A stretch of DNA of 11,065 nucleotides, taken from assembly GCA_034722055.1 (NCBI GenBank), contig JAYENL010000098.1, positions 1-11,065 on the forward strand, in the 5' to 3' direction. The position numbers and the translations under genes are program-made. Numbering within the stretch: the first letter of the stretch is position 1; each line of letters starts with the position of its first letter. The notes beneath the pieces were generated by a model. It did not search any database and was not told the DNA's origin. It saw only the letters and a list, made by a program, of their open reading frames with translations. Below, piece by piece: positions 1,199-10,799 of the stretch. This DNA is from Armatimonadota bacterium (GTDB lineage: Bacteria; Armatimonadota; Zipacnadia; Zipacnadales; UBA5352).

Positions 1199-1290
1199 TG
1201 GAGCCGATCACCGGTGTCGATTTCCTCATTGCATTCATCCTCGTCGTCCTGCTGCTGATGGGCCGGGACCTCTGGCAGGGCACTTCGTGA
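1198..1290 (+). CDS. Small single-pass membrane protein (30 aa, MEPITGVDFLIAFILVVLLLMGRDLWQGTS)
   Basis: GGAGGTG RBS at 1183-1189, TGATG coupling to the upstream gene and one strongly hydrophobic segment. Confidence 0.65.
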   Translation: MEPITGVDFLIAFILVVLLLMGRDLWQGTS

Positions 1291-1545
1291 TGGAGCCAAG
1301 AGGTCTGAGAGTACCATCATGGCAGAGCGAGCCAACGGAGGCGAGAGCACCAATCTCGCGGAGCGAGCCATGAACGCGGAGAGCGCCATCAGAGCAGGAG
1401 CGAGCCATGAGCTCGGAGAGCGCCAGCAGGAGCCAGAGCGAGCCATGAGTTCGGAGAGCGCCAGCAGGAGCCAGAGCGAGCCATGAATGATGAGAGCACC
1501 ATCAGCTCGGAGCGAGCCATGGGTTGCGAGAGCGCCAAGGGAGCG
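1289..1545 (+). repeat. TIGR-like tandem interspaced guide RNA array (two alternating 10-nt repeats, ~36-nt period, 7 units)
   Basis: Repeat A (GAGCGAGCCA) at 1325, 1361, 1398, 1436, 1474 and 1510, with a degenerate copy at 1289. Repeat B (GAGAGYRCCA) at 1307, 1343, 1379, 1416, 1454, 1492 and 1528. Variable 8-10-nt spacers lie between them. Unit periods are 36, 36, 37, 38, 38, 36. Confidence 0.9.
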
Positions 1546-1548
1546 AAT

Positions 1549-2607
1549 ATGAGTTACACCGGCCTCGCCAAGGATATCAGGACCCTGGTCCGGGAGCGCG
1601 CGCATCGTGACATCGTGCGCGAGCTCCGGGACATAGCCGGCGACCTGCAGCGGAGGGAGGCCCGCACACTGGTGGACTGGTACTACCAGGTGCAGGAGTA
1701 CCGCAAGCGCGCTGACAACCAGCTGCTGGCGCAGGAGCTCGGCGACGTGGCCGCGCTGCCTTTCGTCACGTGGATGGGGGCAAGCGTGACCACGCTGGAG
1801 GCGGACCTCAAGCACATGCTCGAGGACTTCGCCGCCGCTGACCCGGTAGGTCAGTGGGCGATGAGTGTGCGGGGGGTCGGTCCGGTAATCAGCGCTGGCC
1901 TCCTGGCGCACATCGACATCGCACGCGCGCCTACCGTCGGCAGCATCTGGCGGTTCGCTGGCCTGGACCCCAGCCTCACATGGTGTGCGGAGCACGAGGC
2001 CAAGGCGCTGGTGGCGGAGGTCCTCGGCGACCGCGAGGTGACGCGCGAGCACATCGCCGCCGCCGCCGCCCGCCTCAACCGCAGCCCGCAAAGCCTCCTC
2101 AACCTCTGGCCGACGGATAAGGACACCGGCGAGCGTAAGCCCCTCACCCGCGACAACTTCGTCAGCGCGGTGAAGACCCGCCCCTACAACGGGCGGCTTA
2201 AGACGCTGTGCTGGAAGATCGGCGAGAGCTTCGTCAAGCAGAGCGGTCGCGACGATGACGTCTACGGTCACCTGTACCTCTCGCGGAAGCAGTACGAGCA
2301 CGAGCGCAACGATGCTGGTGAACTCGAGGTCCAGGCTGTGGCCATGCTCCGGCGCAACCCCAACCACGCACAGGCTGCCATCTACCGCCAGGGCCGACTG
2401 CCCGATGGCCACCTGCACAGCCGGGCGAAGCGGTGGGCGGTGAAGCTGTTCCTGTCGCACTGGCACGAGGTGGCCTACTGGGAGCATTACGGCGAGCCGC
2501 CGCCCAAGCCCTACGTGTTCACGGTCGGCGATGGCGACCACGCACACCGGCTGCGACCGCCCAACTGGTCGCCGCCGCTCAAGGCCGACAGAAAGGAGAA
2601 AGACTGA
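1549..2607 (+). CDS. tasA: TasA-like RNA-binding protein (IS110 C-terminal/Nop-like domain, no RuvC or HNH nuclease domain seen), 352 aa
   Basis: SVRGVGPVISAGLLAHIDIARAPTVGSIWRFAGLDP resembles the IS110/IS116/IS902 (Transposase_20) motif and is preceded by a helical/coiled-coil region. The N-terminal DEDD RuvC motif is absent. The gene lies directly after the dual-repeat array. AAGGGAG precedes ATG 1549; the track's start at 1483 is inside the array. Confidence 0.8.
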   Translation: MSYTGLAKDIRTLVRERAHRDIVRELRDIAGDLQRREARTLVDWYYQVQEYRKRADNQLLAQELGDVAALPFVTWMGASVTTLEADLKHMLEDFAAADPVGQWAMSVRGVGPVISAGLLAHIDIARAPTVGSIWRFAGLDPSLTWCAEHEAKALVAEVLGDREVTREHIAAAAARLNRSPQSLLNLWPTDKDTGERKPLTRDNFVSAVKTRPYNGRLKTLCWKIGESFVKQSGRDDDVYGHLYLSRKQYEHERNDAGELEVQAVAMLRRNPNHAQAAIYRQGRLPDGHLHSRAKRWAVKLFLSHWHEVAYWEHYGEPPPKPYVFTVGDGDHAHRLRPPNWSPPLKADRKEKD

Positions 2608-2956: not shown

Positions 2957-4210
2957 ATGGCTAAGCGCGGCACGGTAGCGCTGCCGGGCCTGTATGATGT
3001 GCGTCTGACACAGGACGTACGCATCGCCGTTGGCGAGAAGCGGCAGGATGAGAAAGCACCGCGCCCACTCGACCATTTCGAGCTTGTCCGCTGGCATTCG
3101 GTGGGCCGACAATCAGGCGGGGGACGGTCCGGCTCCGGGTTCTACAAACGCGACCAGGAGGCCATGCGCCTGCTCGCCAAGCAGCTCGGCGAACAGCCCG
3201 GACCGAGTTTCAAGCCACGCCGGGTGCCCATAAGGGTACTCGCCAATCTGGAGCGTGTGCCTGATCCGGTACATGAGGGCGAGTATCGGTGGGAGGTGCC
3301 CGGTCTGGTTCTCTGGACGCGCATGGCCCGGTACGGGGGCAGCCGCCGAGTATGCGCGTGTGACAGATTCCGCCTGAAGACCAAAGAGGAATGCCAAAAA
3401 AGCGGAACGCCGTATCCGCCCGACCCGTCCACTCGGGGCGCATGGATCGGGAGGGCTTACGCGCGCGATTTCACCGGCGATACCATGCGGGAGTACAAGC
3501 GCTTATGTGACCCGGCGACCTGCCAGTTTGCACAGGACGGGACCTGCGCCCCCCAGACGGTCGTGACTTGCATGCTGGACTTTATGCCGCGTTGCGGAGC
3601 CGTCGCCAAGTTCGTGACGCGGAGCTGGCAGAGCACGCAGAAGATACGCGGGTCTCTGCTGCATATTGGGGCGCTGAGCCGGGGGTGGCTGCTGATGCTC
3701 GACCTCTGGCTCGTCGTAACCCAGGAGACCGTCAGTGCACGCGGCTGGCAGGGGCCAATCGTGCATGTTGAGTATGATGGCGACGTGGCGGCCCTCCGCC
3801 AGGAGAGCCTCCAGAAGAAGCGCGAACTCGTCGGGCTGGAGGAGGAACTGAAAGCGCTCGATACCGGCGAGGACCTGACGCCCCTGGATGATGGCGAGGA
3901 TGCCGCCGCCTGGCAGCGGGAGTTCGCCCCGGAAACCCAGGAGCTTTCACTGGACGATGTCGGCATAGAGGAAACGCTGCAGGAGTTCGCCGCGCAGGCG
4001 GGCTGGTCCAACGCCAAACTGACAGCCGAATTGGAGACGTGCGACGGTGACCAGCAGGCTGTCATTGAAATCCTGGAGGCCGAACTCGGCTACCTGCAGG
4101 ACGCCGAGTTCGAGGACGCCGAGGCGGAATCCGAACCCTGTCAATATGAGGATGACACGCCGCCGCCGGATTTCGAGGACGGCGGGCAGGCCAGGATGGA
4201 GGTGGACTAG
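2957..4210 (+). CDS. Phage recombination protein, Gp3-like/recombination-directionality-factor-like family (417 aa), with acidic C-terminus
   Basis: GGAGG RBS before ATG 2957. The N-terminal RIAVGEK...PRPLDHF and Cys-rich CACD...C-x4-C-x7-C segments resemble this family. It is adjacent to a PD-(D/E)XK exonuclease gene. Family call from recall. Confidence 0.6.
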   Translation: MAKRGTVALPGLYDVRLTQDVRIAVGEKRQDEKAPRPLDHFELVRWHSVGRQSGGGRSGSGFYKRDQEAMRLLAKQLGEQPGPSFKPRRVPIRVLANLERVPDPVHEGEYRWEVPGLVLWTRMARYGGSRRVCACDRFRLKTKEECQKSGTPYPPDPSTRGAWIGRAYARDFTGDTMREYKRLCDPATCQFAQDGTCAPQTVVTCMLDFMPRCGAVAKFVTRSWQSTQKIRGSLLHIGALSRGWLLMLDLWLVVTQETVSARGWQGPIVHVEYDGDVAALRQESLQKKRELVGLEEELKALDTGEDLTPLDDGEDAAAWQREFAPETQELSLDDVGIEETLQEFAAQAGWSNAKLTAELETCDGDQQAVIEILEAELGYLQDAEFEDAEAESEPCQYEDDTPPPDFEDGGQARMEVD

Positions 4211-5665: not shown

Positions 5666-6253
5666 ATGAGATTAGGGCAGGTCGCGCTACTCTCAATTCT
5701 GACGGTGATGCTGGTGGACACGGCAGACGCGCGAAAATCGGCTCTAACGGGGCCAGGGCTGCTGCCAGCGGACCCCTGCCTGCGCGCGGCCACCAAGGCA
5801 CTCCGCGGCGATTACGGCCAGCTGCAGGAGTGGCAGCGGGTCGGCTACCAACAGGCCCTCCGCCATGGGGTGGTCTGGGCGGACGCGTGGGTCACCGTCT
5901 ACTACCCGCAGGAGGGCCATCGGCCCGGAGATCGGACCCGGTGGGGATGGCCGGTGGACGAGCGGTGTGCCGCCGCCAACGAGCTGCCTGGCTACGCCTT
6001 CGTCTGGTGCAATGCTAGTGGCATTCGCCAGGTGCTCGACACGGGCGCCGACCGCAATGATCGGGTGGCCCGCCGCAAAGGCGCGGAGCATTGGGTGGAC
6101 TTCTGGGTGCCGTACCCGACCGCGCTCGGCTTCTGTTCGGCGATCGTACACGTGGCGGCGATCAGGGGTCGGCAGCCGGCGCAGTGGAAGCACGGCAGAT
6201 CGCCGTCTCGCCCCAGAGGACGTCCGCCAGCTCACGCGTGGCTGGCTTACTGA
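5666..6253 (+). CDS. Secreted 3D-domain-like (double-psi beta-barrel) putative cell-wall-modifying protein (195 aa)
   Basis: GGAGG ends 8 nt before ATG 5666. Signal peptide MRLGQVALLSILTVMLVDTADA. Motifs VTVYY, AAANELP, VLDTGA and WVDFW parallel the 3D-domain TAY, AxD, DTG and ID motifs. Confidence 0.65.
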   Translation: MRLGQVALLSILTVMLVDTADARKSALTGPGLLPADPCLRAATKALRGDYGQLQEWQRVGYQQALRHGVVWADAWVTVYYPQEGHRPGDRTRWGWPVDERCAAANELPGYAFVWCNASGIRQVLDTGADRNDRVARRKGAEHWVDFWVPYPTALGFCSAIVHVAAIRGRQPAQWKHGRSPSRPRGRPPAHAWLAY

Positions 6254-6257
6254 GGAG

Positions 6258-6576
6258 GCAACATAGAATGTTGCGCCGGGCCACAAGCCAGCAGAAAGGA
6301 GGCGGAATAGCAGGTTCCGTGATCGGTGCCGCCCGTGTCGCCCATACCCCGGTGCGCTTGCGCACCGACCCCTCCCCCCTCGGCGCGGGCGGCGCAATCA
6401 TGATTTCCGGGGCGGGAAATCCGCCTTGGCCCCCCCGATGGACGCATCGGGTGCGTAAGGAGAGGTCCGGCGACGAGCGACCGTTGCGCCGCGAGTCGGG
6501 CCTCACAGTGCCCCGCCCGCGACGGCGGGTGCGCAACCGGGGCACTGTCCAAACTCATCGCCGACGCGCGCGTTGG
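6258..6576 (+). ncRNA. Candidate structured non-coding RNA or cis-regulatory leader (family not recognised)
   Basis: At least seven consecutive hand-verified stems, with G-U wobbles that favour the + strand, CUUG and GACG tetraloops, and a 7-bp loop-bulge complementarity. Confidence 0.6.
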
Positions 6577-8713: not shown

Positions 8714-9768
8714 TGGCCCGTCAATGGCGTCGGCTTTACAGCAAGCTGATCGAGAGCGAGAACCTAACGATGGCCGCAGAAGAGGACGGATTTGCCGAAC
8801 GCCTCTTTTTTCGCATGATCGCCGCATGTGACGACTACGGCAGGCTGCCGGCCGCTCCCTTCCCGCTTAAGGCGCGCACATGTCCTATGGTCTCACAAGG
8901 TCTTGACCAGGTCGCCAAGGCCGTCCAGATACTGGAGAAGCACGAGCTAGTAAAACGTTACGAAGTGAATGGTGAGGAGTATCTCGTGCTTTGCACATGG
9001 TTTGAACACCAGTCGCAGAAGTGGTTCGCGATGGGCGAGCCCGAGTACCCGCACCCACCGGGTTGGCGCCCACCAGAGAGCCTAGTAGAATGGCTTATCG
9101 AGAAACGAGAAGCGACGGGCGAGAAGGGATCTCCGATGTATCCCCCTACTCGTTATGGTCTGCCAGAAGACTTCCTCGACAGTCTGGTGACTAATAACCC
9201 GACTACAGAGGCGACTGTAGACGCGACTACAGTCGGGACAGAGACAGAGACAGAGACAGAGACAGAGACAGAGTACGACAACGACTCTAACGACCCTTTG
9301 TCGGCTGACGCCGACCGTGAGTGTGGAAAAGGTGTGGAAAACTCTCAGCGGGAGAAAACGCACGCAGAGAAGCTTGCGAGCTTGCGGGATGGCGTGCCGG
9401 GCGAGGACCTGGATCTCATCGACGAGTACCTGGACAACGCCGCGCTCGAGAATAAGACTAAGCGCATCACACCGGGGCGTCGAGTTAATGAGACGCGCGA
9501 GCTACTTGACCTGCGCCAGGAACTGGGGACGCCAGCCTGGCGGCATGGTATGCGCGCCGCCAACAAGGCGGCAGCGCCCAACCCGAACTACGTCCAAAAG
9601 GCCGCTGGCAACTACGACGCGCGCAAGAGCGTGCAGTCAGACGGCAGTGGGAGGAAGTACCACCCACCACAGGATTCCAAGCGGCCCACGAAGACGCTGC
9701 GGGGGTGGGATGCTGTGTTGGGCGAGGAGGGCGGAAGCCACGACGATGGCCGATGTGCAAACGCTTGA
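8713..9768 (+). CDS. Phage replication initiator/replisome organizer (351 aa)
   Basis: N-terminal winged-helix-type pattern (RLFFRMIAACDDYGRL...LVKRYEVNGEEYL...WFEHQ), a low-complexity (TE)n linker and a DnaD-like C-terminal NPNYVQK region. Directly upstream of a DnaC-like ATPase. TAATG coupling at 8711-8715. Confidence 0.8.
   Translation: MARQWRRLYSKLIESENLTMAAEEDGFAERLFFRMIAACDDYGRLPAAPFPLKARTCPMVSQGLDQVAKAVQILEKHELVKRYEVNGEEYLVLCTWFEHQSQKWFAMGEPEYPHPPGWRPPESLVEWLIEKREATGEKGSPMYPPTRYGLPEDFLDSLVTNNPTTEATVDATTVGTETETETETETEYDNDSNDPLSADADRECGKGVENSQREKTHAEKLASLRDGVPGEDLDLIDEYLDNAALENKTKRITPGRRVNETRELLDLRQELGTPAWRHGMRAANKAAAPNPNYVQKAAGNYDARKSVQSDGSGRKYHPPQDSKRPTKTLRGWDAVLGEEGGSHDDGRCANA
9200..9341. 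other. Putative phage replication origin within the initiator gene
   Basis: CGACT(AC/GT)AG three times at a 12-bp period (9200, 9212, 9224), (GAGACA)5 at 9241-9270, and two TGTGGAAAA (reverse complement TTTTCCACA, fitting the DnaA box TTWTNCACA) at 9322 and 9333. Confidence 0.55.
9241..9270 (+). repeat. Hexanucleotide tandem repeat (GAGACA)5 encoding (ET)n
   Basis: Five perfect copies flanked by the imperfect units GGGACA and GAGTAC. Confidence 0.95.
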
Positions 9769-10366
9769 GCGCCAAGTTAGTGATGCCTACCTGGCTGCCG
9801 TCGGCGTCGGGCGCCGTTACCGGATCGCGAGCTGGGCGGAGATCACGCCTGAACTGCGCGATGACGTAGCCGCCTACTGCCAGAACATCGACCAGCACAT
9901 GCGGGATGGCTACGGCCTGACGCTCGTGGGCGGCGTGGGGACGGGAAAGACGTGCGCCCTGGTCCTGGTGGCGGACGCGGCACTGGCCGTGCGCTGGCCG
10001 TATGGTCGGTATGGCGACCAGCCCGTCACCAAGCCGGCGACGGTGGAGTGGATGCTGGGGCCGGTGCTGTATCGGATCCTCCACCGACCGGACCAGCGCC
10101 ATCATCGAGAGCGGATCGCCGCGTTCGAGGCGGCGGACCTGCTCATCATCGACGACTTCGACCGCCTGTACGCCACTGAGTGGGATGTGATGCAGCTGGA
10201 GGCGCTGATGGAGCTGCGCCACAGCGAGAAGCGGTCGGTCTGCCTCAGCCTGAACAGCCTGGACCTGCTGCGGCAGCCCGAGCTGGAGCGGACCCTGGAC
10301 CGGCTGCGCGAGAACAGCGACATCGTGCAGCTGGCCGACGACGTGCAGAGCCGACGAGGAGGATAG
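9746..10366 (+). CDS. DnaC/IstB-like AAA+ ATPase, helicase loader (206 aa)
   Basis: Walker A GGVGTGKT, Walker B LLIIDD and C-terminal RTLDRLRE. It follows the initiator with a 23-nt overlap; the exact start is uncertain. Confidence 0.88.
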   Translation: MADVQTLERQVSDAYLAAVGVGRRYRIASWAEITPELRDDVAAYCQNIDQHMRDGYGLTLVGGVGTGKTCALVLVADAALAVRWPYGRYGDQPVTKPATVEWMLGPVLYRILHRPDQRHHRERIAAFEAADLLIIDDFDRLYATEWDVMQLEALMELRHSEKRSVCLSLNSLDLLRQPELERTLDRLRENSDIVQLADDVQSRRGG

Positions 10367-10370
10367 CCCG

Positions 10371-10691
10371 ATGACGGGCAGCGTCAACGCCATTCGCATT
10401 ATCCGAACCGCGTATGACCCACCCGAATGCAGGCTGTATCTGCTCTTTGGGGCGGAGGCAGACACATGGCTTGCAGACCTACAACGGGGTGAGCGGGTGC
10501 AGCTGCGGGTAGCAACCGGATGCCCCCAACCGGGGCCACAGGCCACCGTGGACTTCATGCTTCTCGAACGTAAGCAGACGTCCCAGGTGAGGGAGCTGGG
10601 GCTTGAGCTCGACCAGCAGGACGCGACCTGGCTGGCGTCCCGCCAGCTGGATGAGGAGATCACAGTCCTGCGGTGCAACGAGGACTGCTGA
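10371..10691 (+). CDS. Hypothetical protein (106 aa)
   Basis: GAGGAGGA RBS ends 7 nt before the ATG; operonic position. Confidence 0.7.
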   Translation: MTGSVNAIRIIRTAYDPPECRLYLLFGAEADTWLADLQRGERVQLRVATGCPQPGPQATVDFMLLERKQTSQVRELGLELDQQDATWLASRQLDEEITVLRCNEDC

Positions 10692-10694
10692 CCG

Positions 10695-10799
10695 ATGGGG
10701 TGGGCGGAGCGAGTTGTCGAGTTGGAGGTCGAGGTAGGGCGCCTACGGGCGGCGTGTGAGAGGCGTGTAGGAGGAAAGCTAAATGCCATACGCAGATGA
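10695..10799 (+). CDS. Possible short coiled-coil peptide (34 aa, MGWAERVVELEVEVGRLRAAC...)
   Basis: In frame with the preceding ORF, one codon after its TGA. Heptad-like sequence and weak RBS. Confidence 0.35.
   Translation: MGWAERVVELEVEVGRLRAACERRVGGKLNAIRR

Follow-up and report, generated by a model that had tools for sequence, protein, structure and literature searches.

A short alternating repeat array that runs into the gene of a nuclease-less protein prompts the question whether these two form an RNA-guided system and, if so, which DNA its guides would address. We analysed this locus over the full length of its contig (C98; 11,065 nt, hereafter the window), which belongs to a binned genome (G000) of 330 contigs and 6.14 Mb. 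The original prediction, a dual-repeat TIGR-Tas array with a nuclease-less Tas protein, is borne out by array anatomy, family score and fold, which all agree. We conclude that this is very probably a TIGR-TasA locus of the dual-repeat type, placed among the early genes (recombination/replication operon) of a phage or prophage, and that its most likely role, by analogy with published systems, is to block transcription under RNA guidance.

As a class the system adds little: the class itself, its processing chemistry and the repressor function of TasA are already published, and the published catalogue counts 20,096 tas loci and 6,685 arrays. Its value is as a test case. The accessible literature describes natural targets and spacer origin as open, largely for want of host context, and the present locus comes with a probable host genome, with one guide in two alleles and with two leads to targets, both weak. 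Sequence comparison and structure modelling together show the anatomy of the array, the family and predicted fold of the protein, the absence of a nuclease domain and the conservation of the putative processing and unwinding residues.

Architecture of the array

A repeat-chain scan found 13 GAG-N4-CCA repeats between 1307 and 1537, spaced 18-20 nt and strictly alternating (Table 1), and no other chain of at least three such repeats on either strand of the 330 contigs (6.14 Mb). As predicted, both repeats start with GAG and end with CCA, and all 13 full copies keep these ends. Repeat B, GAGAG(T/C)(A/G)CCA (predicted as GAGAGYRCCA), is present in seven copies; repeat A, GAGCGAGCCA, is present in six, all identical. 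The predicted seven copies of repeat A are therefore to be corrected to six full ones, and the seventh unit is damaged. Of the 14 spacers, 13 had been read correctly, while the 14th (1538-1545) was a misparse of 3 nt (AGG) followed by a truncated edge repeat, GAGCGA (1541-1546). Spacers are mostly 8 nt, and the unit periods run 36, 36, 37, 38, 38 and 36 nt, such that three of the six complete units are off-length (37-38 nt). Units 4 and 5 are probably slippage products.

Table 1. Features of the array and of tasA, in window coordinates.
Feature	Positions	Strand	Description
Dual-repeat TIGR array	1293..1546	+	edge truncated at its 5' end, six complete units, seventh unit with shortened spacer B, edge truncated at its 3' end
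Unit 1	1293..1334	+	spacer A 1299-1306, loop 1307-1316, spacer B 1317-1324; period 36 nt
Unit 2	1325..1370	+	spacer A 1335-1342, spacer B 1353-1360; period 36 nt
Unit 3	1361..1407	+	spacer A 1371-1378, spacer B 1389-1397 (9 nt); period 37 nt
Units 4 and 5	1398..1483	+	near-duplicates; 10-nt spacer B ends GAGCCA, as the edge repeat does; periods 38 nt
Unit 6	1474..1519	+	spacer A 1484-1491, spacer B 1502-1509; period 36 nt
Unit 7	1510..1548	+	spacer A 1520-1527, loop 1528-1537; spacer B 3 nt in the window allele, 8 nt in run X2
tasA (352 aa)	1549..2607	+	short N-terminal helix, coiled coil, Nop domain; without RuvC or HNH
Wedge module, ~69 residues (roughly 143-211)	1975..2181	+	four short helices and a hairpin
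W222 and K230	2212..2238	+	align with the SpTasH unwinding-junction pair W203/K211
Y322 and H331	2512..2541	+	align with the SpTasH guide-processing residues Y289/H296 (alignment only)

Judged by sequence, the edge repeat is A and the loop repeat is B, because repeat A has an extra inner C-G pair (C4-G7, where the loop repeat has A-A or A-G), is truncated at both array ends and is identical at 9 of 10 positions to the SpTIGR edge repeat; both edge repeats have AG, not UG, before the inner bases. At the 5' end, the truncated copy, ending GAGCCA, occupies 1293-1298 ahead of the first full repeat. According to the accessible part of Faure et al. (PMC12045711), an extra inner C-G pair marks edge repeats.

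The array also reaches the ribosome-binding site of tasA, as predicted: spacer B of unit 7 doubles as that site, and the truncated edge overlaps it as well. No terminator of the kind that usually closes downstream arrays is present, and the array runs straight into tasA. Its folding z-score is -1.7, no Rfam match was found for the locus, and no promoter rose above the scan threshold. An A+T-rich intergenic stretch between divergent genes (380-470) contains TTGCAT-17-TATTAT, sub-threshold in that scan, and is the likely operon start. Separately, a 30-codon hydrophobic ORF without a family match (1198-1290) has its stop codon abutting the first repeat.

The element is present in four brine-metagenome runs of one study (X1 to X4), one of them possibly the source of the assembly. 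Run X1 has the window's length at spacer B of unit 7, where only three nucleotides precede the truncated edge; run X2 carries 5 extra bases and three substitutions there, which give a normal 8-nt spacer before that edge. By eye, a similar truncated-edge ending, 17-35 nt ahead of the start codon, occurs in 7 of the 12 distinct parsed relatives with upstream arrays. The Logan contigs break between 1442 and 1457, and the count of 38-nt units is taken from the window assembly alone. Elsewhere in the element, runs X1 and X2 skip 403 bp (10358-10762), which removes a 106-aa ORF, run X3 skips 93 bp (6295-6389), and run X4 has a 27-bp in-frame insertion at 4162 in the Gp3-like gene. There is no RNA run among the listed carriers of the element.

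The TasA protein, its relatives and its wedge

The 352-aa ORF has the GVGP...WRFAGLDP motif and lacks RuvC, as had been described. It scores 171.8 bits with the NCBIfam TIGR-Tas model NF052498 (cut-off 100); the label of that model, 'endonuclease', does not fit this protein because the nuclease domain is absent. A sequence search of the PDB matched only TaTasR (1.2e-10) and SpTasH (2.5e-7), and a profile search ranked TasR (5.7e-25) and TasH (7.3e-12) ahead of IS621 (1.7e-5). The AF2 model is all-helical (pLDDT 91.8), and all of its top ten Foldseek matches are TasH or TasR. It aligns with SpTasH (9w04) at Z 19.6 (rmsd 3.2, 227 residues) and with TasR (9mty) at Z 18.4 (rmsd 2.5, 194 residues), with IS621 following at Z 13.9. 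Thus the HMM and structure searches proposed for this protein place it with TIGR-Tas, above IS110. No N-terminal RuvC or HNH domain was found; about 40 residues that are helical in the model and lack a Pfam match precede the coiled coil. Among 120 sequences, H331 is invariant, and Y322, W222 and K230 are each at least 90% conserved.

The best structural match comes from SpTIGR-TasH of Salicola phage CGphi29 (PDB 9W04, 9W03, 21KL; PMC13421893), which, in the accessible part of its description, has 8-nt spacers and 10-nt repeats in common with this locus, and whose Y/H and W/K pairs align with those of TasA. Unlike SpTIGR-TasH, the present locus has no HNH, carries a 69-residue wedge and has its array upstream of the gene only. 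FpTasA (Faure et al. 2025, PMC12045711) is described in the accessible text as likewise consisting of a Nop domain alone and as occurring in phages next to a dual-repeat array of 36-nt units, but it has 9-nt spacers and other repeats and, by eye, lacks a large helical wedge. ISCro4, IS621 and archaeal Nop5 have the coiled coil and the Nop-like RNA-binding fold in common with TasA (Z 14.0, 13.9 and 7.4). In contrast to IS110 recombinases, TasA has neither the DEDD RuvC domain nor multi-copy spread, and an array takes the place of the bridge RNA.

Routine annotation does call this protein a transposase, as foreseen: PHROG 4285 carries that label, PF02371 scores 23 bits against a cut-off of 21.3, and database entries begin the protein earlier, with an in-frame ATG at 1483 that lies within the array (374 aa). 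Such false starts arise where CCA is followed by TG. A truncated IS110 transposase lying beside a chance or peptide-coding repeat is nonetheless extremely improbable, and we regard this reading as refuted: the IS110 family model reaches only 26.9 bits against a cut-off of 140, no N-terminal DEDD domain matches, tasA is a single copy in the genome, and the spacers are free. The 37- and 38-nt units would, moreover, break any reading frame.

Relatives of the locus bear on the same point. One search gave 2,655 TasA relatives among 7,999 candidates scored, the closest no more than 53% identical over the full length; 60 related genomes gave one weak partial match. For comparison we took 160 related loci on viral and metagenome contigs, namely the best 80 out of 530 and the best 80 out of 417 (partly redundant, many incomplete). 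The array lies on the gene's strand in 99 of the 160, and the edge consensus is identical to that of the window in 48. Units of 36 nt account for 773 of the 827 parsed units (the window's six included), and periods of 37 or 38 nt for 51. Where the side could be called (90 loci), arrays stand downstream in 67, on both sides in 16 and upstream in 7, which also speaks against a peptide-coding repeat. Across 645 distinct spacer pairs, bases are near-uniform at all 8 positions, and the nearest pair to one of the window array has at least 5 mismatches of 16. Because of this near-uniformity and the lack of a close pair among relatives, a peptide repeat conserved in frame, the alternative originally proposed for checking in homologues, is excluded; at the sequence level, repeats are fixed and spacers free across relatives. 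A further 23 minus-strand 'arrays' called among these loci probably reflect the near-symmetry of the repeats and were not used as a control.

The wedge sits between GLDP and PYN, where short-wedge relatives have 9 residues; among 120 proteins, 72 are long, 31 short and 17 unparsed. Modelled alone, it reaches a pLDDT of 87.7. No Pfam family matched more than 2 of 49 wedge members, no PDB sequence matched under E 0.02, and BFVD gave no match under E 0.001. The best structural Z was 4.5 (48,161 chains), Atlas scores did not exceed 0.84, and 586 candidates contained no stand-alone homologue of 37-177 aa; these searches do not show that the fold is new. On a tree of 103 parsed proteins (wedge removed, FastTree, midpoint root, weak deep support), the wedge state changes 14 times, against a shuffled mean of 27 and minimum of 22, and the ten nearest relatives are all short-wedge. 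The wedge is therefore optional. Of six long-wedge relatives looked up by contig name in the accessible part of Faure Table S1, at least three (L091, L092, L097) are catalogued there, and Xu et al., in their accessible text, describe dual-repeat Tas as retaining a compact core. In the accessible parts of the published Tas work (PMC12045711, PMC13421893, 10.64898/2026.08.11.744272 and 10.64898/2026.09.09.750476) we found no discussion of the wedge, which the Extended Data of the last may show.

Phage context and probable host

The neighbours of tasA encode a Gp3-like protein, a PD-(D/E)XK exonuclease, a DUF5131 protein, a replication initiator, a DnaC-like loader and an HTH protein. Because virion genes are missing from the contig and the terminase model PF03237 finds no match in the genome, the designation 'phage' is drawn from these early genes. 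A cut gene at 1-241, without a Pfam match, has a 76% identical paralogue elsewhere in the genome (C159:29088-29322), and a run of GACAGA hexamers (9237-9273) encodes a Thr-Glu repeat in the replication initiator.

This neighbourhood also suggests another role, in which TasA, instead of repressing transcription, would take part in recombination or in DNA architecture, either by bending DNA for an integrase or by assisting in partition. Downstream of tasA, at a distance of two ORFs, come a PF18897 'recombination directionality factor-like' gene and an exonuclease; the long wedge could give a partner a place to dock, and such a role is proposed in the accessible text of Faure et al. (PMC12045711). 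However, the best self-target on the contig, which is only part of the element, has 3 mismatches of 16, and a wedge whose state changes at least 14 times on the 103-protein tree is not a fixed docking part. We consider such a role quite unlikely and continue with transcriptional repression.

Community contigs provide evidence on the host. Those that match the window at 5699, 7083 and 9667 (a fourth position, 8451, is ambiguous) run on into a CRISPR repeat, and the same repeat occurs exactly at the end of a contig of the binned genome (C302:3844-3950), behind type I-C cas genes. The host lineage thus appears to carry spacers against the phage. This supports G000 as the host. The 20 CRISPR spacers assembled in this genome gave no match to the window, and the C302 repeat occurs in 0 GTDB contigs. 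A second CRISPR repeat, which we take to be type I-E-like, abuts window position 2291 inside tasA in run X4 and is absent from the arrays found in the genome.

Several other repeats and mobile genes of this genome were observed. Of two small contigs, C39 carries a serine recombinase with a C-terminal LuxR-type HTH and C283 a tyrosine recombinase, and both hold a short CRISPR-like array built on one shared repeat; by eye, no cas genes were recognised on either contig, and the two are possibly mobile mini-arrays. A palindromic repeat family, presumably REP, is abundant genome-wide, and one of its 330-bp two-hairpin units is duplicated around a Y1 transposase gene that we take to be a RAYT (C193:22657-22985 and 23588-23918).

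Guides and their candidate targets

Published work covers both the repression exerted by TasA and the processing role of the Y/H pair; in the accessible accounts, repression was observed in E. coli reporters with MbTasA and with dead TasR, that is, in another clade and a non-native host. By analogy, a transcript of the operon would run through the array, and a TasA dimer would bind one repeat of each kind, edge and loop, by its GAG/CCA ends. Y322 and H331 would then cut inside the edge repeats and release guides of 36-38 nt, each of which would open a PAM-free 16-bp site made up of spacer A and, after it, spacer B in reverse complement, a geometry confirmed in the accessible part of Faure et al. 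Table S3 (PMC12045711). Bound TasA, without cleavage, would block transcription. Because the last unit and the ribosome-binding site of tasA overlap, processing or binding at unit 7 could also limit TasA's own translation.

The search of phage and host genomes for spacer pairs, proposed as a check, returned chance-level matches only: no target passed the chance test in the genome, the contig, the CRISPR contigs, or the viral and pooled-relative searches. With all seven units at gaps of 0-4 nt and at most one mismatch, the host genome contains one perfect site, for unit 5 (16/16 with a 1-nt gap, C193:22783), inside the 330-bp hairpin segment by the Y1 transposase, with a 15/16 paralogue at C193:23718. 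The number of perfect matches expected at gaps 0-2 is 0.22 from 8-mer counts and 0.19 from decoy gaps (P ~0.2), and non-cognate spacer pairs score as well as cognate pairs. The X2 allele of unit 7 has one 15/16 site at gap 0 (C39:209), within the first 70 bp of the serine recombinase gene; this match is unsurprising because the decoy rate is 0.42 per gap. In SpTasH, the accessible data indicate that a mismatch at position 5 impairs pairing of spacer A. About 21 kb of the genome falls in recombinase or Y1 domains, and ~11 sites with at most one mismatch are expected over all guides; we estimate that 0.04-0.07 sites would fall inside recombinase or Y1 genes, a category chosen after seeing the matches. 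The idea of the C39 mismatch following a synonymous Gln codon did not hold: His occupies that place in the two closest recombinases, and of the 69 viral matches 0 lie in the motif.

No perfect target at gap 0 occurs in the genome, and this would also fit a system of the same kind whose array is decaying, with units 3-5 produced by local duplication or slippage, unit 7 having lost bases and most guides left without a useful target. With a mean distance of 4.86 against a median of 5.91, the spacers resemble one another more closely than those of any other array among the 51 compared, 37/38-nt periods occur in three of six units here as against 51 of 827 overall, and two alleles of unit 7 coexist. 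Yet all 13 full repeats keep their ends, the six edges are identical, tasA is intact with its key residues conserved, and unit 7 is intact in run X2; the self-similarity stems in part from the single duplication of units 4-5 and could equally reflect tracking of one variable target. Decay is possible, if on the unlikely side, and is compatible with the repressor reading preferred here.

The accessible published literature yielded no natural TasA targets. For the TIGR-TasA locus described here, we lean towards other mobile elements of the same host; host genes are unlikely targets, and the phage's own genes considerably more so. A specific and doubtful version would set guide 5, with its variant 4, against the duplicated REP segment and guide 7 against the serine recombinase gene, such that TasA would silence co-resident mobile elements while the optional wedge would tune binding or recruit a partner. 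Anti-CRISPR targeting found no backing, with 1 of 140 sites (at most two mismatches) in five CRISPR contigs against 0.47 expected.

Viral contigs were scanned as well. Independent matches at gaps 0-4 numbered 8, 3, 8, 8 and 4 for unit 6 (38 loci) and 13, 3, 3, 5 and 8 for unit 1 (60 loci), and none of the viral matches of these two units was similar to the host genome. The pooled relatives gave two independent perfect tandem matches, both with a 2-bp gap; gaps from -2 to 1 and from 3 to 15 gave no such match. These hint at an 18-bp footprint and at phage-phage targeting, at a level that is not significant after multiple gaps. Both matches lie in other TasA-bearing phages: a unit of locus L028 matches L080 at 1162, and a unit of L069 matches L001, L084 and L085.
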